From Botryllus schlosseri (taxonomy: Eukaryota): a stretch of 64,000 nt of DNA. The DNA lies in contig CM119372.1 of assembly GCA_051294905.1 (NCBI GenBank), positions 6,946,001 through 7,010,000 on the forward strand, read 5' to 3'. The notes under the pieces are model-generated. The model saw only the letters and a program-made list of their open reading frames with translations, did no database searches and was not told the origin of the DNA. Both the position numbers and the translations under genes were made by a program. This document shows, one piece after another, positions 26,203-49,218 of this stretch; the first letter of the stretch is position 1, and every line of letters begins with the position of its first letter.

Positions 26203-27802
26203 CAAGGGTCGGTAACCTACGGCCCGCGGGCCGGATCCGGCCCGCCAAGCGAAATCGTCCGGCCCGCGACGAAATAACTAGTTACCACGAGAATACGGCC
26301 CGCCGTTTCGTAATGAGTTCCAATCTGCAGTGCAGCACTGCTTGGAAAGAATGCGGCATTGCTGCGATATAAAGTATATCCTTCGTCGTATTAGTATATT
26401 GTTACGCCATAAAACTGGGGCGAAGGCGGTCGACTAGTAGCCTATCTCGTACTAAAAGTAGGAGATGGAGAATGTCTGTGGAGTAGACCAGACCAGTGCA
26501 TAACTAGCGGGTGTATCGCGCAACCGAGGGTAGCCTATACCATACTTTTTTAAGGGTTTACCACTCAGATAGGGTGCGACAATAAAGGTGCCGTTCCTCT
26601 GCTCCGACGCAATGACAAAATCTCAAACTTTCCCTGTTTCATTATAGATAACTAGCATCCGTAGGTTAGTCATTTGTAGTTTAATTCGCCAGAAGACATT
26701 TTACGCCAAGACAACAAACCTGATTAGTGTTTTGGATACAATGGTGAAAGCTGATTTTGTCTCACAAACTGAATCACCGACAGTTAGCCTACCTCAGATA
26801 TTACTAGAAGCAGAGCGTCAATGTGGCGATGTCTTGCATATCTGCCATGTTCGCGCATTAAGTCGAGAAGCTATGCTTGCACGAGTGTATATGAACTGAG
26901 AAATGAAATAGTAACTTTCCTTGAAAATACGAACATAGCCGACTCATAATCTTGTCATCGAAAATTGGTATCTAATCTAGCTTTCGTAGTACATTTAAGG
27001 TCACATCTAAACAAATTGAATTTGCAACTTCAGGGAGCAACAATTAATAGGCTACATGAGATGTTGAGACGCATTCGAAACAAAACTGCGACTCTGGGAA
27101 TGTCAACAGTGCAAAGAAAATTTTGCTCACTTTCCTATACTGGAGGAGAGTAAGCCTAGTATACCAGCACTATACATTTGTAACTGTGATATACGAAATT
27201 TAATTACTGAATTTCCACCCGCTTTTCCGACATTCGTTCTGTACAAAATAAATTCTGACTACTCAGTAGGCTACTCCGTTTTATGTGGACGCCAAAACCA
27301 TTGCCAGAAAATTTCAAATGGGCCCATTTGAAATGCGATGCAGTTGAATTGAATGACAAATTTCATACAAAGAGCATATCGCTGAATGACTTTGACAAAG
27401 AGTACGTTCTTGAAATGGGTCTTCATCCCAGCTTGACCAACAATGCAAAAGAAATGGCATCGACTTTTGTTTTCAACAAAGAATTTCACGAAGAGCAAGC
27501 TAAGATCACGTATTCCAACGCCCATTTAGAATATGGTCTGATTCTTGCTTCATCTGACTTGTTACCAGAAGTTGAAAACCTTTCACAAAGCGGGCTGCGC
27601 CAAGTGTCACATTTATCTTGCGTTGTTGAAGTGTAAATACATGTGTTTTGCTCTTTTTGTGATTTTTATGATTGAGATTGCAGCATTGTAGGGTAATATA
27701 CCGACGTGAGCGATAAATATAGTATTAAGAAAAATTCCGGCCCGCCAAAATGTTGCGCACTCGAAATTTGACCCGTGACTAGCAAAAGGTTGCCGACCCC
27801 TG
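26203..27802 (+). mobile_element. Charlie/Buster-type hAT with decayed transposase (copy 2)
   Basis: Same element as 17728-19326, inverted; TSD TCGTAAAC. Confidence 0.88.
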
Positions 27803-29270
27803 TCGTAAACTATAGTATAGTAAAGTAATTTAATAGCAAAATGTCTATTTCTGTTCTGTGTTCTTAACTTAACCAAACCTCTTGTTTTATTGAAATTGAA
27901 TTCGCAAATAGTTTATATAGTCCTCAACCATTGGCGCAGGCTGACATTGTATCATATCAATTTGCAACAGGGTAATGTATTGCATCTTATCAATTCGTTT
28001 CTCTATTCTCTATTTTGGCTGGTAACTATAAACTGAGGCTGTGCAATTACTTAATTAGTTTATTAGTTCTACTTAAACGTGAGCGATACAGCGCCTTACT
28101 TGCGTGTATGTTTAACTATATATTCGTTCATCGGTTCAAAATCAATGACCACTCAATCTGTATTTCAGGCAGCTAGCAAAATACAATGACGTAATCACGC
28201 CTCATACCTCGAAAAGGCAATTTGACTTGAATTGTGACTTGACTTGACTTGACTCGACTGGACTCGAGTCACCCCCGAAAATCGACTGACTTGACTTGAC
28301 TCGAGTCACCTTCGAAAATCGACTGACTTGACTTGACTCGAGTCAAAATGTGCAATGACTCGAATTGACTCGTGACTCGAAGGTAGTGACTTGATCCCAA
28401 CACTGGTTTACTAAGGCCTTATGGCCCCTCGTCGTCATCCTGGTTCGTACCGGATATTCACCGGTGCGACGAAAAAATGATTGATTAATTGATTATTTTA
28501 TCTTGTGATTGTCAGGTTTCCATGAAAATGTAATTGAGATTGTAATTGAGCAAAATTTTGATCAAATTACAATTACAATTACACAAAATAGAAATGCTTC
28601 AATTACAATTACAATTACAAATTACAATTGATCCAACTCTGGTTACCATACGTCCTCTTTTAAGAGGATTTGTCCTCTTTTCTGAAGATTTAGGTCAGAT
28701 TTATAGCAAATTGCGAATGATATGCCGTAATATAGCACAGAAGTGACGCTCCGGCGGGTATTTCGGAGTGAAAAACGGTGATTTTAGCTCTGAGCGAAAA
28801 GATGACCCTTTTTTTTAGTCAACCGATCACAAAGTGGGAAAAATTCACCAGTTTTGCAAGTCTCAAATTTTATTTCCAAAATATGGTAAGCCTAAATATA
28901 AGTCTAATTGCACGGATTCAAAATGGTGCAAATATAGCAAAGAATGCTGCAACATTTAAAGTCAAAAGTATCGGATTCCAGGTTGTTCAGAACTTGTTTG
29001 TCGCCATTATGTCAAATTGCAAATTACCCGGTTGGTGCTTTCATTTTATTTCCATGTCGTACTTGTCGTAGGCCTACATGTCAATCCATAATCCGTAAAA
29101 CATGTCAATCAGTCCACGTGACTAGCGGTCACCCATAAAAGATGAACAAAGGTGGAGGCTCAAGGCAGGCATTTAGGGAATATTCGGAGCACTACATATT
29201 TGTTTGCTCAACTCAAAGGTAAACCTGTCATTTCAGTTTGTGGTGAGCAGATCGCCGTGTTTGGAGCTGA

Positions 29271-29299
29271 TGCGTGTTCATATCACGTCGGGGTCACCA
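29271..29299 (+). other. DNA copy of the 3' 29 nt of tRNA-Trp including CCA (extended PBS, not a tRNA gene)
   Basis: T-GCGTG-TTCATAT-CACGT-CGGGGTC-A-CCA = T arm, acceptor strand and CCA; the minus strand reads as the Trp PBS TGGTGACCCCGACGTGAT, 3 nt after the LTR end. Confidence 0.85.
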
Positions 29300-29302
29300 A
29301 AA

Positions 29303-29497
29303 TATAGCGTGCTCTGTCGTGGGCGCGCGTTCTTCTTGGTCCGCGGCTCGATAAGTCAAAGTAGACAAGTCAGCATTGCTCTTTTAATAAAACAACTAAA
29401 ACATGACGATGCTCATCCGACGGATACTAGAGATCGACTGACTCGGACGGTGACTAAAAGGCGACTGCACCTCCGACGGTGACTAAAAGCCGATTCG
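29303..29497 (-). mobile_element. Inverted partial LTR (U5-R side) of the Trp-primed element
   Basis: Exact reverse complement of the LTR 3' part to ~29429, then a scrambled three-unit version of the LTR internal repeat. Confidence 0.88.
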
Positions 29498-30721
29498 TTG
29501 CATCTCGCGGAAGTACATGTCGTAGAGTTGAACGATCCTATCATTTTCGACAAGTCGTTACCTGGTAAAGAACGTCCCTACGTTCCTGCAGCGCTTCGAG
29601 AGACTGTAATGCACAGTGTGCATGATATTTCGCACCCCGGTATACGCGCGACCACTAAATTAATAGCTGAACGTTATGTATGGCCTGGCATGAAACGACA
29701 TGTGAACGATTTCGTCCGTCATTGTCAGCAGTGTCAACGATCGAAGATTCATAGGCATACTCGAACTGCAATTACCAATCTTCCCGTCCCTTCCGAACGC
29801 TTTCATACGGTTAACGTGGACATTTTATCACTCCCTAATAGTTGCGGCTACTCGTATATTTTGATGTGTGTTGATCGCTATACTCGCTGGCCTGTGTGTG
29901 TTCCAATGATGGACATTCGTGTCCAAACTGTTATTGATGCGTTTAGTTTTGGCTGGGTGTCGAATTTCGGCTCACCCCGTAAAGTCATAACCGACCGAGG
30001 AAGTCAGTTTACCTCGCTTGAATGGACTCAGTATATGCAATTCTTGGGTATTTTCCACATCAAAACCTTGGCGTATAAGCCGGAGCAAAATTCTCTTGTC
30101 GAACTCTATAACAGAACTTTGAAAGCCTCCCTCCGCGCATTAGAAAGTCCTCATAATTGGTATCATCATTTAGGCTTAATTGTTTTAGGGCTGCGATGTT
30201 CTGTCAAGGAAGATCTCGGTTATTCACCAGCAGAGCTTGTGTATGGCACTTCCCTTCGATTACCCGGTCAATTAGTCGATCCCTCTCCCAGTGGCAATAA
30301 CGCTAATGATTTCAACTACGTCGGTGAATTAAAACGCTTTTTCTCAGCCTTGGGTGAGATGCCGACTAAGTTTCATTCGAATCAAAAATCTTATGTCCCA
30401 AACGATTTGAATAATTGCACGCACGTTTTCTTGCGGATAGATGGTCATCGTAGATCACTCGATCCGGTTTATTCTGGTCCGCATCAAGTTTTAAAACGCA
30501 CTCGTGAATGTTTCACAATTCTAACGAATAAGGGTCCGTATGACGCCTCAACCGACAGGCTTATACCTGGCAGACTTCCCATCGAGCGTCTCGACGAATT
30601 GACGCCACCGCAAGCTGACACTTCGCGAGCAAACTCTGTGTCGACCAGTGGCCGTATTATTCGTACTCCACATCACTTGAATGATTTTGTGTTGTCACCA
30701 GTATTTAATATGGATATTTAG
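29498..30721 (+). CDS. Gypsy (CsRN1-like) integrase, 5'-truncated pol fragment with open frame
   Basis: HDISHPG...CQQC zinc finger, VDIL / ITDRGSQF / NSLVELYN DDE core, YSGPHQV GPY/F motif; no ATG start, no RT or gag. Confidence 0.92.
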   Translation: MHLAEVHVVELNDPIIFDKSLPGKERPYVPAALRETVMHSVHDISHPGIRATTKLIAERYVWPGMKRHVNDFVRHCQQCQRSKIHRHTRTAITNLPVPSERFHTVNVDILSLPNSCGYSYILMCVDRYTRWPVCVPMMDIRVQTVIDAFSFGWVSNFGSPRKVITDRGSQFTSLEWTQYMQFLGIFHIKTLAYKPEQNSLVELYNRTLKASLRALESPHNWYHHLGLIVLGLRCSVKEDLGYSPAELVYGTSLRLPGQLVDPSPSGNNANDFNYVGELKRFFSALGEMPTKFHSNQKSYVPNDLNNCTHVFLRIDGHRRSLDPVYSGPHQVLKRTRECFTILTNKGPYDASTDRLIPGRLPIERLDELTPPQADTSRANSVSTSGRIIRTPHHLNDFVLSPVFNMDI

Positions 30722-31056
30722 TGTGTTACTCATTCACTTTTCCGCCATCACTTGTATTTTTTCGCAACAGGCTCCTTCATCTCCTGTATGTTCTATAAAT
30801 CGTGTCTTGAGCCTTTCTCATTGTAAAGTGCATCATTATCGCTAAACGAACAATTGTGTCGTTTATAGCTTTACCACCACGCCCACTCCACTTTCATTAG
30901 TCATTATAACATTTAGAATTGAACTCGTATTCGAATCGTAATCTGTAATCATTGCCGTGTCATGCTGGTAGCGTCGTTCATTCGTATATAGTTGAATCGT
31001 TGACTGATGTAGTGTCCATATCATATCCTAAAGCTTTTACCAACCAGGGGGGCCCT

Positions 31057-31311
31057 TGTAGCGTACCGCTCCATGAATGACCTATAATTACCCTCGCTGA
31101 TTACTGATTATGTTACTGCTGCGTCTCTTGTGTTGTACTCTTTTATGGAGTCGCTTTTAGTCACCGTCCGAGCGAATCGTCTTTTAGTATCCGTCGGATG
31201 AGCATCGTCATGTTTTAGTTGTTTTATTAAAAGAGCAATGCTGACTTGTCTACTTTGACTTATCGAGCCGCGGACCAAGAAGAACGCGCGCCCACGACAG
31301 AGCACGCTATA
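31057..31311 (+). mobile_element. 3' LTR of the Trp-primed element, preceded by PPT
   Basis: AGGGGGGCCCT then TGTAGCG...CGCTATA followed by CATG. Confidence 0.92.
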
Positions 31312-32249
31312 CATGTAATTAATTACAATTACTTTTAAACAGGTAATTGATTCAGTAAAGATGTGTTCTTTGACAACCGTAGCGACGTAATTAGCAACAA
31401 TCTCAAGCTATTCATGTTGCATTCCTGATATGTAGAATACCCTTTAATTAAAAAAAACAAACTCGAACGTATTCGAACTATTCCTAATCATGAGTACTGA
31501 AAACTACAAGCACAGAAAAATGTTTCAAGCGACTGTTAAGAACCAAAGGTTTGAGCGAATAACAGCGAATAGGCTACAGACCAGTCAATGAAATGTAATC
31601 AAACGATAAGGCTACTCAGAGCCGAGTCAGGATAATGAAATGTAATTGGTAAGGCGTCAGCGATAAGGATGATACCGATATGGTGCGTACAATTAAAATA
31701 AATGCAAAAGGAAAGAACCTCCTGATAACTAAGAATTACAATACTATGGTTCGCATTTACATTTTCACTTGCTCGGAAACTGTTGGGTTGCATTTGATGA
31801 ACATTAGGGGGCGAAAAGTTTCTGGCCCCAGTAAATTTGGCCAAGATTGGGATAACATCTCTACAAATGCGTGATCAAGTTTGATGAAGCCTTGGTTGGA
31901 AACTTGAATTTTTTTTTGCTATTGTTCCAACAAGCCATGGTACTGGTCAGAGATTTGAAAAAAAACTTTGACCGTAATGTAGGAAATGGTTCAGCACAGA
32001 TTTCAGAAGAGTTTATTTGCAAAATTCACGAGTCAATTTCAAGTCATCAAGTAATCGGTGGCGATAAAAATCACTACTGCATCTTATACATATATGTTCG
32101 GATTGTTCGCGCAACGCTTGTGTAATAACCCGCGTGAGAGCGACCAATCATTTAGTGATCGTGCGTTTTACTGGGCCTCCAATGTTCTCTCACAAATATA
32201 TTGATCGCAAACGAAGTGATCGAAGTTGACAGCATACGTTGTCGTAAAC

Positions 32250-33849
32250 CAAGGGTCGGTAACCTACGGCCCGCGGGCTGGATCCGGCCCGCCAAGCGAA
32301 ATCGTCCGGCCCGCGACGAAATAACTAGTTACCACGAGAATACGGCCCGCCGTTTCGTAATGAGTTCCAATCTGCAGTGCAGCACTGCTTGGAAAGAATG
32401 CGGCATTGCTGCGATATAAAGTATATCCTTCGTCGTATTAGTATATTGTTACGCCATAAAACTGGGGCGAAGGCGGTCGACTAGTAGCCTATCTCGTACT
32501 AAAAGTAGGAGATGGAGAATGTCTGTGGAGTAGACCAGACCAGTGCATAACTAGCGGGTGTATCGCGCAACCGAGGGTAGCCTATACCATACTTTTTTAA
32601 GGGTTTACCACTCAGATAGGGTGCGACAATAAAGGTGCCGTTCCTCTGCTCAGACGCAATGACAAAATCTCAAACTTTCCCTGTTTCATTATAGATAACT
32701 AGCATCCGTAGGTTAGTCATTTGTAGTTTAATTCGCCAGAAGACATTTTACGCCAAGACAACAAACCTGATTAGTGTTTTGGATACAATGGTGAAAGCTG
32801 ATTTTGTCTCACAAACTGAATCACCGACAGTTAGCCTACCTCAGATATTACTAGAAGCAGAGCGTCAATGTGGCGATGTCTTGCATATCTGCCATGTTCG
32901 CGCATTAAGTCGAGAAGCTATGCTTGCACGAGTGTATATGAACTGAGAAATGAAATAGTAACTTTCCTTGAAAATACGAACATAGCCGACTCATAATCTT
33001 GTCATCGAAAATTGGTATCTAATCTAGCTTTCGTAGTACATTTAAGGTCACATCTAAACAAATTGAATTTGCAACTTCAGGGAGCAACAATTAATAGGCT
33101 ACATGAGATGTTGAGACGCATTCGAAACAAAACTGCGACTCTGGGAATGTCAACAGTGCAAAGAAAATTTTGCTCACTTTCCTATACTGGAGGAGAGTAA
33201 GCCTAGTATACCAGCACTATACATTTGTAACTGTGATATACGAAATTTAATTACTGAATTTCCACCCGCTTTTCCGACATTCGTTCTGTACAAAATAAAT
33301 TCTGACTACTCAGTAGGCTACTCCGTTTTATGTGGACGCCAAAACCATTGCCAGAAAATTTCAAATGGGCCCATTTGAAATGCGATGCAGTTGAATTGAA
33401 TGACAAATTTCATACAAAGAGCATATCGCTGAATGACTTTGACAAAGAGTACGTTCTTGAAATGGGTCTTCATCCCAGCTTGACCAACAATGCAAAAGAA
33501 ATGGCATCGACTTTTGTTTTCAACAAAGAATTTCACGAAGAGCAAGCTAAGATCACGTATTCCAACGCCCATTTAGAATATGGTCTGATTCTTGCTTCAT
33601 CTGACTTGTTACCAGAAGTTGAAAACCTTTCACAAAGCGGGCTGCGCCAAGTGTCACATTTATCTTGCGTTGTTGAAGTGTAAATACATGTGTTTTGCTC
33701 TTTTTGTGATTTTTATGATTGAGATTGCAGCATTGTAGGGTAATATACCGACGTGAGCGATAAATATAGTATTAAGAAAAATTCCGGCCCGCCAAAATGT
33801 TGCGCACTCGAAATTTGACCCGTGACTAGCAAAAGGTTGCCGACCCCTG
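32250..33849 (+). mobile_element. Charlie/Buster-type hAT with decayed transposase (copy 3)
   Basis: Duplicate of 26203-27802; TSD TCGTAAAC. Confidence 0.88.
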
Positions 33850-35850
33850 TCGTAAACTATAGTATAGTAAAGTAATTTAATAGCAAAATGTCTATTTCTG
33901 TTCTGTGTTCTTAACTTAACCAAACCTCTTGTTTTATTGAAATTGAATTCGCAAATAGTTTATATAGTCCTCAACCATTGGCGCAGGCTGACATTGTATC
34001 ATATCAATTTGCAACAGGGTAATGTATTGCATCTTATCAATTCGTTTCTCTATTCTCTATTTTGGCTGGTAACTATAAACTGAGGCTGTGCAATTACTTA
34101 ATTAGTTTATTAGTTCTACTTAAACGTGAGCGATACAGCGCCTTACTTGCGTGTATGTTTAACTATATATTCGTTCATCGGTTCAAAATCAATGACCACT
34201 CAATCTGTATTTCAGGCAGCTAGCAAAATACAATGACGTAATCACGCCTCATACCTCGAAAAGGCAATTTGACTTGAATTGTGACTTGACTTGACTTGAC
34301 TCGACTGGACTCGAGTCACCCCCGAAAATCGACTGACTTGACTTGACTCGAGTCACCTTCGAAAATCGACTGACTTGACTTGACTCGAGTCAAAATGTGC
34401 AATGACTCGAATTGACTCGTGACTCGAAGGTAGTGACTTGATCCCAACACTGGTTTACTAAGGCCTTATGGCCCCTCGTCGTCATCCTGGTTCGTACCGG
34501 ATATTCACCGGTGCGACGAAAAAATGATTGATTAATTGATTATTTTATCTTGTGATTGTCAGGTTTCCATGAAAATGTAATTGAGATTGTAATTGAGCAA
34601 AATTTTGATCAAATTACAATTACAATTACACAAAATAGAAATGCTTCAATTACAATTACAATTACAAATTACAATTGATCCAACTCTGGTTACCATACGT
34701 CCTCTTTTAAGAGGATTTGTCCTCTTTTCTGAAGATTTAGGTCAGATTTATAGCAAATTGCGAATGATATGCCGTAATATAGCACAGAAGTGACGCTCCG
34801 GCGGGTATTTCGGAGTGAAAAACGGTGATTTTAGCTCTGAGCGAAAAGATGACCCTTTTTTTTTAGTCAACCGATCACAAAGTGGGAAAAATTCACCAGT
34901 TTTGCAAGTCTCAAATTTTATTTCCAAAATATGGTAAGCCTAAATATAAGTCTAATTGCACGGATTCAAAATGGTGCAAATATAGCAAAGAATGCTGCAA
35001 CATTTAAAGTCAAAAGTATCGGATTCCAGGTTGTTCAGAACTTGTTTGTCGCCATTATGTCAAATTGCAAATTACCCGGTTGGTGCTTTCATTTTATTTC
35101 CATGTCGTACTTGTCGTAGGCCTACATGTCAATCCATAATCCGTAAAACATGTCAATCAGTCCACGTGACTAGCGGTCACCCATGAAAGATGAACAAAGG
35201 TGGAGGCTCAAGGCAGGCATTTAGGGAATATTCGGAGCACTACATATTTGTTTGCTCAACTCAAAGGTAAACCTGTCATTTCAGTTTGTGGTGAGCAGAT
35301 CGCCGTGTTTGGAGGTATTTCCAATCAACATAATGAGAAAAACGCAGCGAAATACAAACTCTCGTTGGCTGACTGGGGCCGAGAAAGCGCGGGTTTCCAG
35401 GCACCTGCCAGCGAAGCTGTCAAAACACCAAGGCTCAATGTCACGATACACAGCCCACAGCCCTGGACGAAGACCAGTGTAGTAACGTGAATGACGGTCT
35501 ATCTAATATACGAGACGTGAGTTCTCAAGCAGCCATGTATTCAGTGACGACCCAGCACCGAAGCCCCTGCGATGTCGTCACACCCTAGTGGCGCCATAGA
35601 GCTACCACTACATCTCCCTTCTCGGGACAAGCACAAAAGCTTATAAGCAGCACAAACATATACAACGCAAGCACAGAATGAAGACAATAAACAATCCGAA
35701 TTGAGGCAGTTAGCGGTACAAAGGTATGAAGCAATAGGCAGGCAAGAGGTGAATGAAGAACACAACATATTTACACACACTACTCCTATAACTACATCAG
35801 TACTCCTCGATGTATCTGCGAGGTGCGGTTCTGTTTCGATCCGACCGTTG

Positions 35851-36444
35851 GACCATAGTGTCCTATATGGTGTCGACGCAAGCGAATCTCACGGCTCAGT
35901 GAAGTTGTATCACGTCACAATTTCCTTTTGGCTACAGAGGCAATTTGACGGTCATTTTTGACCGGCTTGCCGAGCATTAAATTTGGTAAAACGGGTATCA
36001 ATCGAAAGCTGACTCTGCACTGATTACGAAAATATAAATTTTATTCCGCTCGTGGCCCTGGAGCTCCCACAATCAGCCTCGAATTTTTCATTGTTATTGA
36101 GATTGGCATTGGGACGCAACAATGCTGTCTGGCGAAACGAGAGGTTAACTCAAGAGAAAAAGGTCCAAAAAGCATTGTTGCGTCCCAATGCCAATCTCCA
36201 TAACAATGAAAAATTCGAGGCTGATTGTGGGGGTTCCAGGGCCGCAAGCGGAATAAAATTTATATTTTCGTTATCAGTGCAGAGTCAGCTTTCGATTGAT
36301 ACCCGTTTTACAAAATTTAATGCTCGGCAAGCCGGTCAAAAATGACCGTCAAATTGCCTGTAGCCAAATGGAAATTGTGACGTGATACAATTTCACTGAG
36401 CCGTGAGATTTGCTTGTGTCGACACCATATAGGACACTATGGTC
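35851..36444. mobile_element. Palindromic (foldback) MITE, 594 bp
   Basis: GACCATAGTGTCCTATATGGTGTCGAC ... GTCGACACCATATAGGACACTATGGTC; arms run almost to the centre; no clear TSD. Partial copies at 15354-15726 and 61312-61445. Confidence 0.85.
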
Positions 36445-37309
36445 GGACTATCGCCGCCTCATGATGGTCATCGCGATCGACACTAGTAGCGCTCGAACTG
36501 CTATCTCCTCCCTGATAGGGAAATTTGAAGAATTCAGCTGCCTCACTGGCGGTAATGTCGACGCCTTCTTGCGCGGTATTCTCCATCTGGTATCTCCGCA
36601 CCATTCGGCGATTTCTTCTGAAGGTGCCTCGCCCAGTTCTGATAACCAAGGATCTGGGTTGAGTGTCAGTGTCAAGTTTTTCCACAACACCCTGCGATTT
36701 GCAGTCCGGAATCCAGACGCGATCTCCCACCTTGAACTCATCTCCAGGTACTACTCTGTGTCTTTTGTTGTAATCACGAGTATCTCTGCGTCGGTAATCT
36801 TCTTCGGCTTTCTTCGCGGCGGTTCGGTCGACAGGCTTGGGCAGAAGATCGTCTGGATGACACGGTACTCTTGTTCGTAGATTGCGGCCCATGCTCAATA
36901 CTGCCGGCGAGTAGCCGATAGCCAATGACGTGTTGGGGTATGTGAGTAGCGCCAGATATTCATCGTCACATTTTCGCAGAAGGTTTTTGATGGTCTGAAC
37001 GGCACGCTCAGCCTCCGAGTTCCCCTGTGGATATCTAGGTGAGGACATGATATGTTCAATTTTCCAGCTTTCGCAAAATAACGCAAAGTCACGGGAAGAG
37101 AACATAGGTGCTCCATCTGTGACCAAAGTCTCGCAGATGCCGTGCCCACTGAAAATCTTCTTGAATTTCAGAATCGTCTCTGCTGCGTTCACTGTTATGG
37201 AGACAATGCAAATCTCAATGTCCCTGGAGTAGCAGTCAACGGCTAGCACGTACATGGAATTCTGGTATTGAAAGAAGTCGGCACCAACACGGGACCAGGG
37301 TCTCTCTGG
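36445..37309 (-). pseudogene. Integrase core and C-terminus of the Mag-like element
   Basis: PERPWSRVGADFFQYQNSMYVLAVDCYS...LVTDGAPMFSS...SSPRYPQGNSEAERAVQTIK; the frame resumes past the MITE as QRSDRNRTAPRRYIEEY*. Confidence 0.9.
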
Positions 37310-37712
37310 TGCAGGAGCTCGTGCTCCTTCTCTCCTATCGGTTATTGAACAATACTACATCACGTGACTTATCGCATAGTTATAACGCAGTGCATATCAC
37401 AGATTGACTCAGAGAGACTCATGTACGCTAACTTACTGCTTATACCCGAATTGATATATAACCCTCCGTACAATACATTTGGAAAGGGCAATTGTTTGTG
37501 TCTATTGAACTACAGTCAAGAACTACACAGGACGTTCGTGTCAGCTACTACCAGTTAAATATATACTGTAAGCTGCTATCCGTAGACCACGGACTTGCCG
37601 TATACAATCGCAGACTGACAGACCGATCTCCATCCCGCATGGTGCCCCTCGAGTACGTGACTTAGTTCAAACGAAAAGACTCTTTGCCGCTCCATCATCG
37701 GACTATTAGCAT

Positions 37713-40700
37713 TGCCGCAATACAATGGTACTTGTCCTGGTGAGTAGAAGTATAGCTAACCAAAGTATTATAGGTTTAGCTGGCTGACTACTTAACCTGC
37801 AGTCCTGTACTGTATCCTGGTGAGATCTTCTTAAGACGCAGATATACGCAAGACATACGAATATATTTCAGACGTTGTTCCAAGTAGGGTTAGCAAATGA
37901 ATCTCATCTCGAGTCAACTAAACATGCGCTTATATAGACTCGTGATCATTGCAATCGGAAGTCTTATTCGTTTCCTAATATGGCGTGGAAAACACAATGT
38001 TGGATATTATCATATGGTCCCGCAAGCATGTGTATCACAGCTGTATCAGCGGTATAAATTGCAACACTCTGCCACAGCTTGGCAGCGGTTTCCTCTGATC
38101 GAATGAAGCCAGATCGGATGAGATCTGCTTGCGGTTAGTAGGTTCATCTAGGTTTGGAGGTTGTCAGTTACCAGTTACCAGCTTATAAACACTCGACATA
38201 ATTCCAATAGGAAGTCAACGTCATATGCTAATATGGGTGTGAAATACACTGTTGTCATAACCCTATACACAGCGGCACCGACCCTTGTTTGAGGGAGCGA
38301 ACATGCAATGAAGCGGAAGTAACTATCATACGTATAGGTGTAGACAACAGTAATTCATTTAGCCAAGACAATTCCACGAGTGAATCAACTCAACGAACAC
38401 TAATACAACACGAGAGATGAACAAGGTTTTCTACAGCTTTTATAATATACAAGTTAGCTAACGAAAACACAACACAATTTTTTTTTAAACCTCCAAACAT
38501 ACCAGGCAATTGTTGCCTAAGAAAATACGAGACTAGCACAAGATCGAAACAATAGCAAAGGCATTAGGCCTATAATCTTTTTGTTTACTTAAGTGGCGTT
38601 GCACTAGTAAGGTTTTTATTAATTGTTTTCTAATATACAAGTCAATCCAATTGAAATACACAGCACAACATCTAACACTAACAATACTAAATAATTCTAG
38701 CCTAACAAAAAATGTTAGAATAACACAATACAATACATCCCAGTAGGCTCAAATATCATGCGTGTTACATCTGCCAAGTCTGGGAGGCTATCCAACTCCA
38801 AAAACAAGTCTTGGCCACCAATATGTACAAGTGTGGCTGTTTAAAAATTCGGTACTTATATACTTCGATCAGTATATAGTACGATTGAGTAAAATCGACG
38901 TTTACTTCAATCTCGCGGTGCACATCTGCTACTCAATAGCTGAGGGACATATATGCCTGTGTGCTGTAGCATATCCAAGGCAGGTTTCAAATGGGGTCTG
39001 GCTTGAACAGATTTCAGGGGATTGGGCTCTCGCAGTACCATAACTGCATATTTCGTACGTGGCGACATAATCGGTCGATTGATGTAGAGAGCGGTATTAC
39101 GTCGGTCGAGGTTGAGTCGGTCGGCCGAATGAGGTAGAGAGCGGTATTACGCCGGTAATCTGCTGTGGACATGTGGTCAACAGTCAGCATCATTTTGCCG
39201 CAGTTGGTAGTGTACTGTCGGCGTCAACCGTTTCCCGATTTCTCGTTCCGTTGCGAATCGGTACCGTTGATTTCGTAACACGAAATTTATGCCAGAATTG
39301 TTCCCCAAGTCGATCGAAAACGTTCGATGTCCCTTTGACTATGAGAGCTTGATGCACCGGAAGCGAAGGCGAGATTGGAACGTGCATGCGCAAATCTGAA
39401 ACAGCACACGACAGCCAGTATCACTTTGAAAAGGACTCAACAACTAGGCTTAGCACGAATACGACACAAGAGAAACAAGCAATAAAATAAACTGAAATAA
39501 ATGTCTCCAAAGCCCTGTAACTACAAGCTATGTGGACTTATGGAGGGTAACTACTTGACGTGAAGAGGTGGTAAAAGTACTAGTAGTTTTGAAAACAGTC
39601 GCAATTCGTTTGCATGGACTGTCAACCTTTGCGTGATTATTATAGGCCAACGTTAATCAAAAATATGTTGGATCGGAAAATTACCATATAGTGTATCCTT
39701 ATTTCGGAAAATGGAGGAATTACTATACCGGTACTTGCCTGTATACTTCAACATGTATGTTCTGCAGACAAAAGAACCTAAAGTATTTAAAGCCCAAAGT
39801 ATGATCCTCGGAATTGAAAGAGAAACACAATACCACATTTTAAAAGCGGAAAATATATTTCATGTCTTTTGTCCAGAAAGTGTCAATGGTGGTCTGCTAA
39901 AACAGGTGCAACTTTAAAAAAGACACCGGAGTTCACTTATCCTGATCAGCACATGTCAAGGCTGCTAGATTACGATACAATTGTAATTTGCCAGATTGCA
40001 AAACGGTAGCTTCAAGTGTTTTGATGGGCCATATTTCTGTGATGAAATATTTGATATGGGCGGCAATGCCGTATGAGCGGAACAGCACAATACGGAACCT
40101 AATTTATATTCACCGACATTTTGCGGAAACATATTTGTCAATTTACAACGACTGTGCGCGAAGCGAAAAAAGTCCTGGCTTCACTTGACTTTGATGAAAA
40201 TTAATGTCGGTACTCCGTGAAACAGACCTGAAATTCCTCAGGCTATCTTCTTTATTGGAGGATCACACTACTTCTACTTGACAAACTGAATAGCGAAAAG
40301 TAAGTAAGTAGATCACAAAATATTACGAAGTAGAAGTAGAAGTAGAGGAAATCATATCTACTTGAGTAAGTACAAAAAGTAGCGGAAAACTACTTGAGTA
40401 CTTCAAAAAAATAGAAGTACTTCATTACGGGCCACCTCTGTTGACGTGACGTAAGGCAGGGTAATTCAGTAATCCAAATGAAATAAACAAAGGCTGCACC
40501 TAACAGCATTTAAGGCCGTAAAGGTGTAATATAAACGATTGGCGATATGAGAAGCAGACAACTCACGCAAGTACTGAATTAAAACATGCGGAGATATACG
40601 TGTGATAAAATGCTATCATAATCCTTCCAGGCTAAGGATCCACCTTACTGGACAATCTAAGAACGTCTCAGTAAGCTACGTGGCGCGTCGATTCAACTAT

Positions 40701-43700
40701 ATACTTTAACAATCATGTAATGAGATTTGAATTTGAGTTACAGACGCGTTCTGCGAATGAGAATGCCATAATTATATAAAAAATAATTATTGAACATTTT
40801 TCGTGGGATACGGATATTTAGAATATTTGAACCGAAATGAGCTGTTCCGTTATCTATAAAGTAGCTAGACGTGATAATTCTGACCAAACGAACGAACGGC
40901 CGAGCCGACACTAGTGACCGCCAGGAAAATAAGCTTTCTGTACTATAGCAAACAGACTGTCGGAAGCATTTCTGATCAATGATGAAATTCCCATGACAAA
41001 CCAATAACGGTGCACTCCATTGGCGTCAACTGAAATATAATTATAATGCAGAATTTGCAATAAGTGGAATAAGCGATTTCTGAATCACATATAGCCTATA
41101 TTTGATGTGCAACGTTACATTCGAATGTATTCAAATTGGATACAAGATTTCGGTATTTAGAATTAGATCGTTCCCGTACCTGCAGGAGCGTCGCTAAAAA
41201 GTTTAATGCTGTTGCTGGTTTCATTGAGACGTGCTGCAGCTGCCCCAAACCCAACTACAGCATGTGTCCGACTAACAGCGGTTCGGTATGAGGAAAAAAT
41301 CCATAACCAAACATCTAAAGCTAATCCCAGTGACTTCATCTCAATTCTTGTAACATAAGGTAACGTTGTCCGAACTGCATTAAAATGGGGGAATTCTTTG
41401 ACAGCAAACCGGGGGGATAGCGAATTTTGCGCAGTGAGCTGAATCCCATACAACCGCGGTGCTAAGATCATTTAAACAATGTCCTTCATTCGATAAACAT
41501 AGCCAGATAAATCACACAATTCGGAACGCAATTTGAGGTTAAAGAACCGTATACCAATTTTAAAGCATGTACGTACAATCAATTACGCAGAAATCCTATA
41601 TGTCCACTGGACGCTCAAGGCCAATCCAGTGTCGTATGAAATCGAATATGGCGCGTTACTGAGCCAACTTCCCTATAACTACCCAAGCGAACGCACTAAG
41701 CGCTCTAGGATACCTCAAAAATAAACGAAGTTTAGCAGAAAATTCATAATTCGCACTAACGCAAGATCACGCCAACGTGAGAAGTGAAAGAAAATTCAAA
41801 ACCACTTTCTTTATCGAGGCGCGCAAACATGTACGCTTCTAGAAGTAGGAACAATGGACGGCGTGTATTTCTAAATTACAACGTCCTGAGTCTGCGATAA
41901 ACGCTGTATCGCTGAGAAATTTGAACGGCAATACCAATTTATTAAGTTTGCCTACAATGTCAAAATTTAGCTCGTACAATTTATTTTGTCAAGCCTGTAA
42001 GAGGATCTGAGACAATTCTGTATTAAAAACGAGCGCGTTTAATTTTGAATTAACTGCGCAAGGTGAAATCTCGCGGAGTATATCCTGTTCGCGACACGTA
42101 TACGTCGTGTTCGGTATCGCGGGAAACAGGAAAAGGTGTCATGTAACTCGAATTTGAGTGGAAGCAATCATGTTCTGAACGAAAAACGCGGTCGTCTGGC
42201 GGAAAAAAAAATAAGAATTTGCCCGCGGTCTGTAAATCGCGCCATGTATGGGAAACGTGTCTCTGACGTCACAACGTCCACGTGGTATCGACTGCACCAC
42301 GCCCAAGGCTGAAATCGGTGAAATAAAACATGGCGATTTTGAGGCCAAAAGTAATTCATGTTCACGAAACAGTCTCATGTACAATGGACCCTGTAAAACT
42401 AATACAGAAACAAAAATAACCCGGTTAAACTACGAAGCGGGTAGAGCCAGTACACCACACCAAACGCAGGATTGCTGTATACAGATTCTACCTCAACTAA
42501 AAATCCTGAGCCTGCACTGATTCTGTCAAATTTTTACAAAAATCAATCCAGTGCCAAGAGCGAACATCAGTACATTGGCGTGCTTTTTTATCGTAATTCA
42601 TGTGACGCCAGCACATAAGGTGATTTCTCGCTGAAGATTTAAGCGAGTTTTTGATTGAATGAAAAAGCTGTAATTCTTTCCGAATTCTACTGAGAGTCAA
42701 TTTGAAAGGCACGAATCGCACGGTTTGCGCGCAAGCGCCCAAGCCCACGACGTTACTCTGCTGTGCACTATCTAACATTTGAGCAGAAATTAATTGGGCC
42801 ATAGTCAGCAGCGCGTAAACTAGACGCAAGCGTAATCTAGTCGAAACTTCGAGTTGTGTGGCGCGCGCGTTTTTATTCAACTGCGATTTCTCATCAAAAA
42901 GGAAATTCCCCTGTACGACGTTGGTGTTAATTTGTGAATCAACATTTGAAAGCGAACTAGCCAACCAACGTTCAACATTTGCGTGGGTATCTAATTTATG
43001 ATCCTGAATAACACTTAAATCAGACACGCGCTGTGAAGCTGAATCACATATTACAACAGGAAATATCAAATCTGAGAAGTTATCGCTGTGAGACCCATCG
43101 TCATTCATTCCGTCAATCTTACCTGGTAAAGCTCTTACGGGCTTAACAATGTTAGGGATATCAACGTTAGAATTAACGACTGTAGGTGTAGTTACTAGCC
43201 AAGGAGACATAACATGTGCACAAATATACCATAATATATAACATGTAATACACGAATTGGCTAGGGAATTATATGCTGTCGCGATACTTATTTCAGAAAT
43301 GCAATACAAGCACGTACCGTATTGATCAATGTCCGGAATCCTGATAATTCGATAGTTCGATGGCAACGTCAAAAGTCCTCGTACTCAACGTAGTAGCGTT
43401 TAAGATATCGCTCGGGTCATCATGCCGCAATACAATGGTATTTGTCCTGGTGAGTAGAAGTATAGCTAACCAAAGTATTATAGGTTTAGCTGGCTGACTA
43501 CTTAACCTGGAGTCCTGTACTGTATCCTGGTGAGATCTTCTTAAGACGCAGATATACGCAAGACATACGAATATATTTCAGACGTTGTTCCAAGTAGGGT
43601 TAGCAAATGAATCTCATCTCGAGTCAACTAAACATGCGCTTATATAGACTCGTGATCATTGCAATCGGAAGTCTTATTCGTTTCCTAATATGGCGTGGAA

Positions 43701-43987
43701 AACACAATGTTGGATATTATCATATGGTCCCGCAAGCAGGTGTATCACAGCTGTATCAGCGGTATAAATTGCAACACTCTGCCACAGCTTGGCAGCGGTT
43801 TCCTCTGATCGAATGAAGCCAGATCGGATGAGATCTGCTTACGGTTAGTAGGTTCATCTAGATTTGGAGGTTGTCAGTTACCAGTTACCAGCTTATAAAC
43901 ACTCGACATAATTCCAATAGGAAGTCAACGTCATATGCTAATATGGGTGTGAAATACACTGTTGTCATAACCCTATACACAGCGGCA
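37713..43987 (-). mobile_element. Second-level nested LTR element, non-autonomous, clade uncertain
   Basis: 565-bp LTRs TGCCGC...GCGGCA at 37713-38277 and 43423-43987, about 5 differences; 4-bp TSD GCAT; PBS-like TGATGACCCGAGCGAT and purine-rich AAACAAGGGTCGG on minus strand. Confidence 0.88.
42497..43372 (-). CDS. 291-codon ORF in the gag position of the nested LTR element, no recognised domain
   Basis: Open frame starting ~30 nt after the PBS; assignment by position only. Confidence 0.4.
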   Translation of the reverse strand: MTLPSNYRIIRIPDIDQYGTCLYCISEISIATAYNSLANSCITCYILWYICAHVMSPWLVTTPTVVNSNVDIPNIVKPVRALPGKIDGMNDDGSHSDNFSDLIFPVVICDSASQRVSDLSVIQDHKLDTHANVERWLASSLSNVDSQINTNVVQGNFLFDEKSQLNKNARATQLEVSTRLRLRLVYALLTMAQLISAQMLDSAQQSNVVGLGACAQTVRFVPFKLTLSRIRKELQLFHSIKNSLKSSARNHLMCWRHMNYDKKARQCTDVRSWHWIDFCKNLTESVQAQDF

Positions 43988-44602
43988 GCATTCACTTGGA
44001 ACGATACGGAAATTCACAAAAACACCAGGACTGCAAGACACATCCGGTATTTACCCCTTTTATATGATTTCTGGATTTGTTTGTCGGCTGGCAGTTCGCA
44101 TATACATTTGACTGTAATTTTCCGTGTTATAAAATTTCGCTTTTTGATATTTCGATCATATATTCGCAAATTTATTGCGGTTTTGGTACCATGGCAACCA
44201 ACAGCGAATCAGATGAGGGTGTAGCTTATAAAATAGCGCATAATTACGATCTTAAATACTGCGGGGATGGACCTGCTATTGGCTTCGGCACATCTGATGA
44301 TAATTTACATCACGAAAATCAAAATGTTGATCAGTCCGCCCTTCTGGCAGACGCCGGCGATACTGATGTCGTTTCCCGCGGAGTGAACGATGAAATTCCC
44401 CGGAATGCACGACATATACCCGTGATCTGATTCCTAGCCTACTAATTTGATTGTTTGACTCGTTTTTAGTTATTTTAAAGACGCAACTTTTGATCGAAAA
44501 TCGTCTACTTTATGCTTTATTAATTTAAATAGGTTTTCCGAAAATTTCAATATTACATCACAGTTCGCACGCTCTACATTACACAATCCTACTGCATTTT
44601 AC

Positions 44603-44865
44603 TTGATAATTGTTTTTGACTATGGAACTAACCGAGTATTCCTAATTGATTCGGGAATTGACACGAGCTTCATAAAAGCTCTGACTGATTCGTTTGGTAA
44701 TTTCACCGTTGCGTTCTGCAGCCCAAATGATACAATACTTATCGGTAACGGTCAATCGGAATTGACAATGTCATTTATTAGTTCTTCGTTTATATATAAA
44801 TTCATTTTTGAGATCGCATCGCTACCCTATTGAATAATTGCCTCTGACTTCCTTCGTTATTTTAA
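44603..44865 (+). pseudogene. Gypsy aspartic protease remnant
   Basis: RVFLIDSGIDTSFI...FCSPNDTILIGNGQSEL...FIFEIASLPY*IIASDFLRYF (DSG active site and IIGxDFL-like motif). Confidence 0.75.
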
Positions 44866-47800
44866 ACATTCGCGAGCGCACGATTACAGATGAATACAAT
44901 CAGATAACGGTCTCAGCTCTTTCAGACGCCCATAATTCGATTTGCTATCTAACGTAACTTCAGATTGTATGAATGACCTTATCGCGGCGTGCTATATATC
45001 ACGCTACCAATAAGGGCTTTTTGACTCCGAACTCAGCATACCGCATTTGTATGTATTCTAATTTGATATACATTCAATACATGACGCGTAATTTTCTGGA
45101 TCGTTTAACCCGACGATTCGCCTACTCTAATGCACTGAATAATGTACGTAAATACAAAATTTAGGACAACTGTCCCGCACAAAAACTTCGAGTTCCGGAC
45201 GATGCTTGACGGCGCCTCGGAATTTGCAAGATTCGACCTATCATCCATTTTCGCAGAAAACTAGTTTCTTTTTCATTTCAGTTTTGCTTCATTGACTTCG
45301 CGAAAATCGTCTTGATTACCTCGCGTAACCTAGGTTTCTTTCGTTTTTTTTGGTTACCTCATTATTCATTATTTACTTACTTACTTGATTAATTTTTCAT
45401 TGTACATTTTTACATTTCAAGACATGGCTGCTAACATCTGGTCACCGAAATCCGTGAAACATTTTGTATAGTCACGTGTCTCTTAATTCTCCCTGCCCAT
45501 TTTATAGCTACTTGGGGAACTCGTTAATTAGGTATACGGTTGAAGTACTGGGTGTGTATGGGTCTTCGCTTTCAGCTCCCAGGTCAATCGTGTGTAATGC
45601 TGTGAGCATGGGGAAATTACGTGTCCAAGTAATTCATCTTGTGTTGGCTTTGACATCTCGCCAAACCGTTTTTAGATATGGGGACTGTTAGTGCGCAATT
45701 CAGCAATTCTCTGGACGCGTGGAATTTATGATTTGCATCGCTCCAGTTTAAAACTCATTCTATTTACTTTCACTCTATTGCATAACGATGCTGAAGTAGA
45801 ATTCCGCTTACCCGTCTCGCCCGTACGCTTTTTTTTATCGAAATGACCCAGGACCGGACACTATATAGTGTATATAATGTATTATACGGTTTTTGGATAA
45901 AGTAATTATACAGTGTTGGAGAAATTTGATCTAACACTCACTGTTAAACGATGTATCTTACCGCTCGGTACGTCATTATTATTTTAGACTTCAAAGCACA
46001 TTGAGTAGCTGGGCCCACGTTAACACTTTCAATATGTTGAGTGTGCGTGCTGTGATGATTAATTGCTTGTTATTCCTTTTCTTTCGATCCGTTGGCAAAT
46101 CAAGTTCTTGATTAAATCACGTCAACATTACTAATCTCGATGATTTGATATCGATACTAGATTTCGCTTGCCAGCAAAATGCACGTGATCCGATGTACTT
46201 TGCTGACCAGTTTGATTTCTACCTTTTTTTTCATTATTTTTACGTGAGGTTACCTACGTCACATAGGTGACGTCACCACCACCACTTGAATTGATTGCAG
46301 CGGATAGATGTACTAGTTTCCTACTTAAATGAAGGAGCCATCCATCATCTGTTTCGCTGCCTGCCACACGTTGTTTAATTGTTGCCTTATTATTGTTTGC
46401 ATGCTTTTGTTATTATTATTTTCTTATTGTTACTCGTGTTTACGGCGCGAGCATGTATTGGTTTCATTGATACTGCTGCCGACAATTGTCTTCCAGAAAT
46501 CGTATTTACGCCCCGTGACCGCACCAAATTGCCGAACACCAACTGCTCATGCTCACGAAGGACATTACTAGTTACCTGCCCGCGATGCCCAAATGACGCG
46601 CTGAATCACTTATCTCAAGTGCGGCCTACCTGGCGGAAGGAATCGCATTCACGATTACAACGTGCGGTTCTAAGGACGCTGTTTCAACCGGAATCTTACC
46701 GCACCATTTCCGCTTCGCGTGCATCGAAAGTCTACAAACCCGGTTGGTCATAACGCGATTACATATGGCCATTACATTGGCAGGATTATCAATACATGAA
46801 ATGAGCATAAACTTCTGTAAATATTTCGGCAATTTGGCGTTTTTTTTCGCACGGCTTTGTAAATAACTTCGTTCTTTGACATTACATGACGAACGGACTT
46901 TCCCATTCGCGCCATTAGCGACACATGTGATCGTCACATCCCCTAATGGATGCTGGATGGCTGGACATTGATTTATCCCTCAGAAGAACAACTGTAATGT
47001 GTTTATTATTCCCCTTTTTTATGGTTGCATGTATTTTGCCTGGCGACCATAACTACCGCTCCTTGTCGGCAACCCCGCGTCATTAATTGGATTTGGTTTC
47101 GTTTTTTTAAAAATTTATGACTAGACTCAGACACGGCTTTGTTCACGCAGATTTCTCAAGCCACCGATTTTGCTGTTAACGAATTCTCACAACTCTTGCA
47201 TAAAATTCGCATAATATGACTTCATCATGTCTCAGACCCCTTACATCAATCCGAAAATAATTCCCCCCTAATTGTCGATTAACGAGTTGAGTGATTCGGC
47301 TTTTGTAAACCCGGACTCGCAGATACGGGATTTCCGATGACCCCTTAAAACCGTCTTTCAAGTATGCCACGCCGCACACATTCACTTTCTGCACACATGG
47401 CGCGGTGGTTATGACGCTACTCGCCCTTTACTTTATTGTTCTTTGTTTCTTATAATAATACAAAAAAAAGTTTTGCCTTTTCCAACCCATGCTGCTATCT
47501 CATGATTTCTTGGACACGGGATTCGACCTCACATGGTGACCACGTGCTACCTTCAATCCGCACATTGTACCGTTACCGTATTTTAATTATTGCATTTCAT
47601 ATTCGTGCCTCTGTTCTATTCAGTTACCTGTATGATTGGAATATCGTTATTACTCCGTTCTTGTTGGTACAGTGCAGGAGCTCGTGCTCCTTCTCTCCTA
47701 TCGGTTATTGAACAATACTACATCACGTGACTTATCGCATAGTTATAACCCAGTGCATATCAAAGATTGACTCGGAGAGACTCATGTACGCAAACTTACT

Positions 47801-47958
47801 GCTTATACCCGAATTGATATAACCGTCCGTACAATACATTTGGAAAGGGCAATTGTTTGTGGCTATAGAACTACAGTCAAGAACTACACAGGACGTTCGT
47901 GTCAGCTACTACCAGGTATATACTGTAAGCTGCTATCCGTAGACCACGGACTTGCCGT

Positions 47959-48322
47959 TGCGGTTGTATCGTCCTGAAGTAGCAAAGTAGCGTAACCTGT
48001 GTATTGTAGGTAATTGCTGCGCTATACTTAACTTGACGTCAACTCTGTAGTAAGTTCTTGAACCAAGAGATTGCTCAATACAAGATTTATTAGTCGTCGA
48101 TGTTTGTAGTAGGTAGCGTAAAATGAGTCTGATCCAAACGAGAGAGACTCTATAGTTTTGCAGTCTCTCGAACGAGAGAGTGACTACGTGCAATATTGCG
48201 TCATTAGTATTTACTAAAGCATGCTTGATGTGTAGTACGTGATTTAATTATAATAAGTTCTCCATGCTAATTATTGGTTGTTTGTTTGTTAACTTAAACC
48301 CTTAAGTTGCCGAGCAACTGCA
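47959..48322. mobile_element. Solo LTR (364 bp) inserted in the 3' LTR of the 37310-48364 element
   Basis: TGCGGTTG...CAACTGCA with 4-bp TSD CCGT; the empty site is visible in the other LTR at ~37598. Confidence 0.9.
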
Positions 48323-48364
48323 CCGTATACAATCGCAGACTGACAGACCGATCTCCATCCTGCA

Positions 48365-48749
48365 CTGGGAAGGATGCTGACAGCATCGGTTTCACCCTTT
48401 CTCGCTGATGCTCCGTGCACTTTTCGCAATTTCTGACGGTTTCTTCAATGTCCTTAGAAATTCCAGGCCACCAGCATGACTGTGATGCATTGAGTCGGGA
48501 TTTTGTCACCCCTTGCTGAGCATCATGAAGGTCTCTTAAAACGTCTTGTCTCAGCGTACAGGGGATCACCAAGCGATTCCCTTTAAGCAGGAGTCCGTCA
48601 TGAGAAGATAAACAGGCTCTATCATTCCAGTATGGCCTAAGTGGGCCATGCAGCGTCTCTTTGCATTTCAGCCACCCTGAGGATACATATTGCATCACTG
48701 TGCGCAATACGTAATCTTTCTAGAGCTCTGAGCGAATTTCATCCAACCG
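48365..48749 (-). pseudogene. Integrase zinc-finger region of the Mag-like element
   Basis: RLDEIRSEL*KDYVLRTVMQYVSSGW...RLVIPCTLRQDVLRDLHDAQQGVTK...WWPGISKDIEETVRNCEKC...PMLSASFP. Confidence 0.9.
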
Positions 48750-48790
48750 TCATTTCTATGGCGTGGGTTCGAATCCCACCGCTGCCACCA
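48749..48790 (+). other. DNA copy of the 3' ~42 nt of tRNA-Leu including CCA (extended PBS, not a tRNA gene)
   Basis: GT-CAT-TTCT-ATG-GC (variable arm) GTGGG-TTCGAAT-CCCAC (T arm) CGCTGCC-A-CCA, abutting the 5' LTR. Confidence 0.85.
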
Positions 48791-49218
48791 TGTAGTAACG
48801 TGACTGACGGTATGTCTAATATACGAGACGTGAGTTCTCAAGCAGCCATGTATTCAGTGACGACCCAGCACCGAAGCACCTGCGATGTCGTCACACCCTA
48901 GTGGCGCCATAGAGCTGCCACTACAACCAGCTTCGTAGTATCTCATTCAAGGCCTAGATTTTGACGTCTACATAGCAAAGGGGGTCTGGGTTTGTGTGAT
49001 GTAAATGCTTCGCATTGTTTTGAATAATGACACTGAATGAATAAATGGTAGAATGTTTTGGTAAACTAACCCCCACCCTCTCCTGGCCGAATTCTAACAC
49101 ATCCAATATAGCAGCTTTTGTTAACAATGTAATTCACGGTTGTCTATTTAGAAATAGGTTGCATATGATAGTTCAAACTCTTGGCTCAGCCCGCCAAGTT
49201 TTTTTGCTTATTATTTGA

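Follow-up and report, generated by a model that had tools for sequence, protein, structure and literature searches.

In a 64,000-nt stretch of the Botryllus schlosseri genome (contig CM119372.1; hereafter the window), two long terminal repeat (LTR) retrotransposon insertions, E1 and E2, contain DNA copies of the transfer RNAs (tRNAs) that prime reverse transcription in their families: 29 nt of tRNA-Trp (29271–29299) and 42 nt of tRNA-Leu (48749–48790), respectively. The question raised by this locus is whether two such captures within 20 kb have one cause. Both captures were found to be genuine. The Trp and Leu primers and the LTR lengths given in an initial annotation of the window, 255 bp (31057–31311) and 135 bp (48791–48925 and 35478–35612), also held, and each tRNA copy is longer than 18 nt and includes the encoded CCA. 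No tRNA genes were found in the 64-kb window, and the computed chance of either match arising within it was below 1 × 10⁻⁸.

Some 90 captures were found in the whole genome (495 Mb, 219 contigs). Because only about 0.3 capture pairs within 20 kb are expected from this number, no local cause is needed for the proximity of E1 and E2; a local cause was dropped, and chance pairing suffices. The Leu-primer captures reflect a real, genome-wide, and primer-specific failure of the plus-strand stop, yielding copies that are dead on arrival. The single cause that the initial annotation had envisaged for both elements was abandoned: E2 is explained by plus-strand overshoot and a jump, whereas E1, the Trp case, is a rare repair event with a different structure, a patch at a tandem-duplication junction. 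We consider this combined explanation likely, on the basis of the mature-tRNA origin of the copies, their unique junctions, the target-site duplications (TSDs), the overshoot frequencies, and the contrast at tRNA base 58.

Captures were collected with a generic pattern consisting of the T-arm, CCA, and the LTR end, which detects only tRNAs with G52, T60, C61, and C62 beside LTRs ending in ACA; a Ser capture would be expected to fit this pattern. It gave 100 matches, compared with three in the control. By hand classing, 84 were clear Leu copies (36 of the AAG/TAG type and 48 of the CAA type), one was a decayed Leu copy, one was Arg, 10 belonged to a separate tRNA-like family, and four were left without class. 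For Leu(AAG/TAG), all 62 primer sites of the families with LTRs ending in CTACA were read; 31 extended at least 16 nt and 30 at least 19 nt into the tRNA. One of them was a local duplicate, and overshoot was thus counted at 29 of 61 independent sites; L203, a decayed copy with extension, was counted among the normal sites, as scored. Overshoot was found at 48 of 304 Leu(CAA-type) sites (control, 18; four extended in the first 30 read), at 5 of 168 Trp sites at a threshold of at least 28 nt, which misses shorter overshoots (one extended in the first 30 read), and, by hand count from 89 rows, at 1 of 57 Arg and 0 of 18 Ser-like sites. The systematic process suggested by the initial annotation was thus supported for this genome. 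A long primer site as an inherited family trait was rejected, as normal sites are only 11–14 nt in the Leu(AAG/TAG) families, including that of E2, and 18 nt in Trp families. In the main CAA-type family, the primer pairs over 19 of 20 nt.

The template of the captures was mature tRNA in primer register. CCA is encoded in all of them. The wobble base A34 of the genes reads as G in all six AAG-type sites that reach it (five independent events), as expected for inosine (I34), and base 58 or 26 is altered in some copies: G26 and A34, present in 11 of 11 genes, are replaced by T26 and G34 in the Arg capture. This Arg(ACG) capture (L129:1440–1530; G000:C3:23459737), about 65 nt beside an LTR end, combines two modification marks in one fossil; misreading of G37 was rejected as a further mark because 10 of 11 genes have A37. 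In family A of the Leu(AAG/TAG) set, all 20 extended copies have G at primer-site position 9, whereas 8 of 21 normal copies have A there, unlike the tRNA. Normal cycles therefore inherit the primer site from the element, and only the accident copies the tRNA.

The Leu overshoots ended after 39–47 nt in 17 of 29 cases and after 56–59 nt in 7 of 29. These clusters adjoin U44, G37, and G26, positions where we presume that blocking modifications occur. Signatures of 1-methylguanosine at 37 (m1G37) and N2,N2-dimethylguanosine at 26 (m2,2G26) are reported for zebrafish tRNAs (PMC11417395).

Several other tRNA-related sequences were noted. The separate tRNA-like group (L113, L115, L135, and seven more) has a variable T-arm ending in CCA, located two bases before an LTR end and matching no tRNA seen here; its members are possibly element-encoded primer-like RNAs. 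A tandem array of tRNA-Trp genes with 169-bp spacing (L105–L109; G000:C15:18189311–18193518) lies beside an intron-containing tRNA-Leu(CAA) gene, which ARAGORN called Ser.

The Leu-primed element and its landing sites

E2 lies on the minus strand and consists of the 5′ LTR, the tRNA-Leu copy, pol from just before the integrase zinc finger, the integrase core, the polypurine tract (PPT), and the 3′ LTR. The 5′ LTR (TG...CA) is at 48791–48925. The adjoining tRNA copy reads on the plus strand and corresponds to the 3′ 42 nt (positions 43–76) of mature tRNA-Leu(AAG/TAG), with one mismatch to the tRNA-Leu genes of the same genome; A58 is kept at 48772. The copy overlaps pol by 2 nt at the jump. Measured on a natural full-length copy, the jump lands 2,881 nt past the primer site, between RNase H and integrase. 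The landing region (48365–48750), with one stop, contains the end of the RNase H–integrase linker and the zinc finger; the integrase core and tail follow at 35627–37309. The PPT (35613–35626), the 3′ LTR (35478–35612), and the TSD ACCAG (35473–35477 and 48926–48930) complete the element. Its two LTRs have diverged at 5 of 135 sites, a larger difference than most family members show. In addition to the stop in its first piece, the integrase is broken by an 11-kb LTR element (37310–48364, plus strand; 4-bp TSD CTGG) and a 0.6-kb foldback insert (approximately 35856–36441), both of which inserted into E2 later.

In the nested element, the site after the 5′ LTR starts with TGGTGCCCCTCG, and a clear PPT was not seen within 37310–48364. 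It also contains a 565-bp internal direct repeat (37713–38277 and 43423–43987) and a 295-aa frame (42497–43384) without a Pfam match. The E2 family, with its Leu primer site, 5-bp TSDs, 135-bp LTR, length of 4.6 kb, and the Gypsy domain order RT–RNase H–integrase (RT, reverse transcriptase) in one natural full-length copy, resembles the Mag clade, for which a Leu or Ser primer, a 5-bp TSD, a short LTR, and a length of about 4.5–5 kb are described (PMC3286476). "Mag-like" is used here as a working label from these features.

Among 30 independent Leu(AAG/TAG) events, 17 continue forward into the element interior, two enter the interior in inverted orientation, two return to the LTR, and nine are followed by no family sequence. 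The predicted association of extended tRNA matches with internal deletion was confirmed: 18 of 20 extended copies were deleted, compared with 6 of 21 normal two-LTR copies (Fisher's exact test, P = 9 × 10⁻⁵). This comparison took copies with both LTRs in the fetched stretch and omitted 10 extended events, seven normal copies (families A and B), and minor families. On the family-A ruler (interior, 4.37 kb; RT, approximately 1664–2135; RNase H, 2324–2726; integrase from 3065), landings were at 1259, 1889, 2489, 2881, 2954, 3074, 3198 (inverted), 3250, 3425, 3466, 3525, 4013, and 4314 nt. The 21 landings in family sequence are at 21 different places, and no junction is common to separate loci; the sole repeated junction is one local duplicate. 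Overlaps at the landings are 0–7 nt, with four short fillers and several blunt joints, and overlaps of at least 2 nt occur at 11 of 21 landings, compared with about 16% expected by chance (P = 1 × 10⁻⁴).

Two ideas on the origin of integrase-only copies were rejected on these grounds. Retention of integrase as a selected outcome does not fit landings scattered from 1259 to 4314 nt along the interior; only 2 of 13 independent landings in the E2 family left the whole integrase and nothing else. Nor was a source of integrase-only mini-elements, as proposed in the initial annotation, supported: no deleted structure has amplified across loci in the manner of a non-autonomous family resembling terminal-repeat retrotransposons in miniature (TRIMs).

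Most deleted extended copies have nearly identical LTRs and perfect TSDs, with 0–2 LTR differences in copies such as L204, L219, L222, L223, L226, L228, L232, L247, and L249, and E2 likewise retains its ACCAG duplication; therefore, the damage preceded integration. We infer that the strand that jumped was the plus strand. Its synthesis, primed at the PPT, would have copied the LTR and then run into tRNA-Leu still attached to the minus strand. Without a stop at position 58, most likely because the primer carried little 1-methyladenosine there (m1A58) where the elements move, synthesis would have halted deeper, mostly at tRNA positions 38–45 or 26–29. Pairing at the primer site would then have been impossible for the overshot end, which would instead have jumped, with an overlap of 0–7 nt, to a position inside the minus strand. 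With both LTR ends still normal, integrase could insert the product with a clean 5-bp TSD. The retained part would be whatever lies 3′ of the landing point, and E2 would have been deleted from birth.

The scatter of landings, several of them blunt or with short fillers, also fits the possibility that the template broke first. The overshot DNA would then be a normal dead-end product, used when the minus strand stalls on cut RNA, for example after small-RNA slicing, and the extension would mark the deletion without causing it. Dead-end first plus-strand products are known in Ty elements (PMC5371799), and the primer-site variants inherited from the element agree with this idea. However, L233 and L235 re-enter the LTR end with the interior otherwise full and the primer site duplicated, so a stalled minus strand is not required, and a broken template alone leaves the rarity of overshoot in Trp and Arg families unexplained. 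We regard this alternative, which is compatible with the overshoot-and-jump explanation, as possible but clearly short of an even chance. L189, which is the same as L112, likewise overshot and then re-entered the LTR end; its primer site is duplicated and its interior otherwise complete. Two further copies, L214 and L215 (G000:C3:37435400–37473700), lie 38 kb apart in opposite orientation. Their TSDs are exchanged (CAAAG/TTATA and TTATA/CAAAG), which would result if recombination between the two copies had caused an inversion.

Host repair after insertion, in which a host polymerase copied free tRNA or complementary DNA (cDNA) intermediates into breaks in existing elements, was considered for the same junctions. 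It may fit the nine host-joined events, for which no flank duplication was found in the 176–407 bp upstream and about 5 kb downstream that were compared, and in yeast, DNA breaks can take up cDNA intermediates of Ty1 (PMC11372161). In copies of the E2 type, however, the tRNA follows a complete 5′ LTR exactly in primer register and is always the family's own primer, and many of these copies have identical LTRs and intact TSDs. As a general explanation, host repair is quite improbable, with its better fit at E1 taken up below.

Position 58 of the primer

A58 was kept in 82 of 84 Leu captures adjoining an LTR, and again in 82 of 84 with a second pattern without the LTR condition, of which a few rows may be other elements. 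The five Trp captures have G three times, T once, and A once at this position, giving retention in 82/84 Leu versus 1/5 Trp copies (P = 3 × 10⁻⁵). In normal copies of the E1 family, the base after the 18-nt primer site is T in nine, C in three, and A in two; weakly, this base may represent a one-base misreading of m1A58. A profile search detected four exons of a TRMT61A-family gene without stops, covering profile positions 1–195 of 247. From these sequences, the m1A58 enzyme is probably present and tRNA-Trp probably methylated, and tRNA-Leu would be either under-methylated at position 58 or read accurately by its RT.

Global loss of m1A58 is unlikely because the Trp copies mostly misread position 58 and the TRMT61A exons are open. 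The initial annotation had named low m1A58 as one possible cause; acting throughout the organism, it would derail all LTR elements and breed integrase-only mini-elements. The roughly 90 captures and the strong link to deletion would agree with this, but overshoot is rare at Trp, Arg, and Ser-like sites, four of five Trp captures misread A58, no junction is amplified, and integrase-only copies are few. The suggestion is largely refuted and retains hardly any probability.

A narrower proposal is that the germline tRNA-Leu primer is selectively unmethylated at A58, which would cripple up to half of the Leu-primed gypsy insertions at birth. We advance it tentatively, at not quite even chances. The enzyme rather than the primer could be responsible if the RT of Leu-primed families passes m1A58 without stop or error. 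In favor of this, correct insertion of deoxythymidine triphosphate opposite m1A by RTs is known (PMC4787781), G37 was likewise read correctly in 10 of 10 copies passing it, and all high-rate families measured combine Leu primers with a zero- or two-nt spacer. However, two errors in 84 would be very few for a base with a blocked pairing face, stops still cluster beside other modified positions, and Ser-like sites with the same zero-nt spacer show no overshoot (a comparison by spacer, not by clade). We consider the enzyme explanation unlikely.

Several points weigh against selective under-methylation and the overshoot-and-jump birth built on it. In zebrafish, m1A58 is reported on nearly all tRNA clusters, Leu-CAG included (PMC11417395). 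Primer and enzyme are confounded, since Leu- and Trp-primed families have different RTs, and the correct reading of G37 is compatible with an accurate RT as well as with a primer pool that is under-modified in general. Part of the overshoot may be due to short primer sites alone, yet the CAA-type family with 19/20 pairing still overshoots. Dead short copies may outlast full-length ones and inflate the overshoot share. Finally, 9 of 30 events lack both a flank duplication and family sequence next to the tRNA and so are outside the jump model as such.

The Trp-primed element

E1 lies on the plus strand and is made up of the host flank, a filler, the tRNA-Trp copy, a spacer, an inverted LTR piece, integrase, the PPT, and an LTR. 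A 4-nt filler (29267–29270) joins the host flank to the 3′ 29 nt of mature tRNA-Trp(CCA) (positions 48–76; 29271–29299). Its position 58 (29281) is T, where tRNA-Trp genes have A. A 3-nt family spacer (29300–29302) and the 3′ 191 nt of an E1-family LTR on the minus strand (29303–29493) follow. This piece is a repeat variant found in other family copies but not in either LTR of the locus; it overlaps the integrase side by 1 nt, at 29493, and a 5-nt overlap considered for this joint was reduced to that value given the LTR variants. The 3′ part of pol (29493–30721) encodes the zinc finger and core of integrase in an open frame that lacks a start context; RT and RNase H are absent. The PPT region is at 31043–31056 and the 3′ LTR at 31057–31311, followed by CATG.

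A solo LTR of the same family (255 bp, TG...TA) stands upstream at 25010–25264, flanked by CATG at 25006–25009 and 25265–25268, and differs from the 3′ LTR at two sites. The segment 25010–29266 is repeated at 31057–35314 with 99.8% identity, forming a 4.26-kb tandem duplication; its host flank (25265–29266; second copy, 31312–35314) has five differences in about 4 kb. An older inverted copy (15348–20943) holds the empty site, with one CATG near 20260. Because the solo LTR is framed by CATG, the flank is repeated, the empty site exists, and the inverted LTR variant is foreign to the locus, E1 is a patch at a tandem-duplication junction.

The initial annotation was thus correct in part. Both TSD lengths that it gave are confirmed, as CATG and ACCAG, but CATG belongs to the solo LTR and not to E1 as a two-LTR element. 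Its claim of the same outcome for both elements stands as to the rearranged junction and the integrase domains alone; E1, however, is no two-LTR element with an internal deletion. Integrase, PPT, and LTR are retained in E1 as described, whereas the tRNA copy and 191 nt of LTR are inverted, with the tRNA end joined to host DNA.

As to the order of events at E1, a minus-strand U5/R piece with its Trp primer attached may have been copied through methylated A58, after which the copied piece would have patched a chromosome break and joined the 3′ part of the element, while the resident LTR was duplicated together with 4 kb of flank. The patch may have existed beforehand as an aberrant cDNA and recombined with the resident LTR, or it may have arisen by template switching at a break on the resident element. 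The host repair considered above fits here, with the tandem duplication, the inverted patch of a different LTR variant, and the filler bases. Against this reconstruction, contigs from four public sets (X1, X2, X3, and X15) bridged the junction in none of the four, a gap that proves nothing by itself. It could point to an assembly artefact, but the T58, CCA-bearing Trp piece occurs beside an E1-type LTR only once in the genome (1 of 19 matches), so E1 is no mis-joined genomic copy; moreover, the duplicated flanks differ at five sites, and the public runs need not be from the assembled individual. An artefact is very improbable.

The E1 family matches the CsRn1 clade of Ty3/gypsy in several features. 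An 18-nt tRNA-Trp primer-site match was present in 14 of 14 sites sampled, and the 4-bp TSD is CATG at the solo LTR, for which the empty site was also seen. The CHCC Gag motif C-x2-H-x9-C-x3-C, with a spacing that we take to be that of CsRn1, was found in six of six copies tested, E1 itself being without gag. The tRNA-Trp primer is a CsRn1-clade feature (PMC2582038).

The LTR termini of this family are TG...TA rather than TG...CA. In its leaders (L140–L168), the primer site is followed by variable tandem repeats of the site's last part, as if the plus-strand end re-annealed repeatedly. The inverted segmental duplication (15348–20943 versus 24327–25009 and 31308–36229) is young, with 99.7% identity, and also carries a copy of the E2 3′ LTR; the 4-kb flank is thus present three times in the window, in the inverted and the two tandem copies. 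Elsewhere in the window, inverted, degenerate TTAGGG-like arrays occur at an internal position (49370–50655 and 56848–57053). Repeats of this type, together with the clades of the elements, would be in keeping with an invertebrate genome.

Comparison with known systems

If the germline tRNA-Leu primer is indeed selectively unmethylated at A58, a single tRNA modification is an isoacceptor-specific brake on retrotransposition, and overshoot possibly acts as a host restriction route. Marks of germline tRNA modification (m1A58, I34, m1G37, and m2,2G26) would also be preserved in genomes as a legible fossil record that could be mined from any assembly. The m1A58 plus-strand stop has been tested mainly in human immunodeficiency virus 1 (HIV-1) and cell lines; B. 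schlosseri offers about 90 fixed outcomes with a sharp primer contrast. Overshoot further gives a concrete route to LTR elements that have a 5′-anchored deletion but perfect ends, a class that annotation tools handle as ordinary decay. It also shows that tRNA pieces with the B-box region often enter LTR elements. The mechanism itself is known from HIV and Ty. As to its genome-scale frequency, no report of genome-wide primer overshoot in LTR retrotransposons was found in a search that covered older and subscription literature thinly, so absence from print is not shown.

Pulsinelli and Temin (1991) reportedly obtained deletions in retroviral vectors by strand-transfer errors; these laboratory events would resemble ours in a deletion anchored at the primer site within one replication round. 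Sequences derived from tRNA also occur in or beside the LTRs of the Helenus and Ajax TRIMs (PMC10886601), and a single tRNA-pair insertion is described for cqgypsy_1 (PMC3286476). In Helenus, however, the tRNA-like sequence is a promoter within the LTR that is shared by the family and bears no relation to the primer, whereas B. schlosseri copies each capture their own primer. Membership in Helenus (TRIMp3) was rejected, as the tRNA copy here sits outside the LTR and is copy-specific.

For E1, the closest model is the capture of Ty1 cDNA intermediates at double-strand breaks in yeast, where LTR-end intermediates are patched into a break (PMC11372161). Unlike these, E1 keeps 29 nt of the primer with misread A58 and is accompanied by a 4.26-kb tandem duplication in an animal genome. 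For E2, the primer site in Ty1 and Ty3 is not inherited from the tRNA, and the first plus-strand product is normally a dead end (PMC5371799). Family A is similar in its short primer site and in site variants inherited from the element, but its product reaches 22–59 nt into elongator tRNA-Leu and is fixed at high frequency. On tRNA-Lys3 that lacks m1A58, HIV-1 RT overshoots and makes a product that fails (PMC8599865, PMC13191261). In both systems, RT would copy the attached primer and, without a stop at 58, continue to later modified bases, giving a product that cannot pair at the primer site. In HIV-1, this is a minor, non-integrating product, whereas the overshot ends of B. schlosseri would be rescued by the jump and integrated with clean TSDs, and in this natural genome they account for about half of the 5′ ends in some families.

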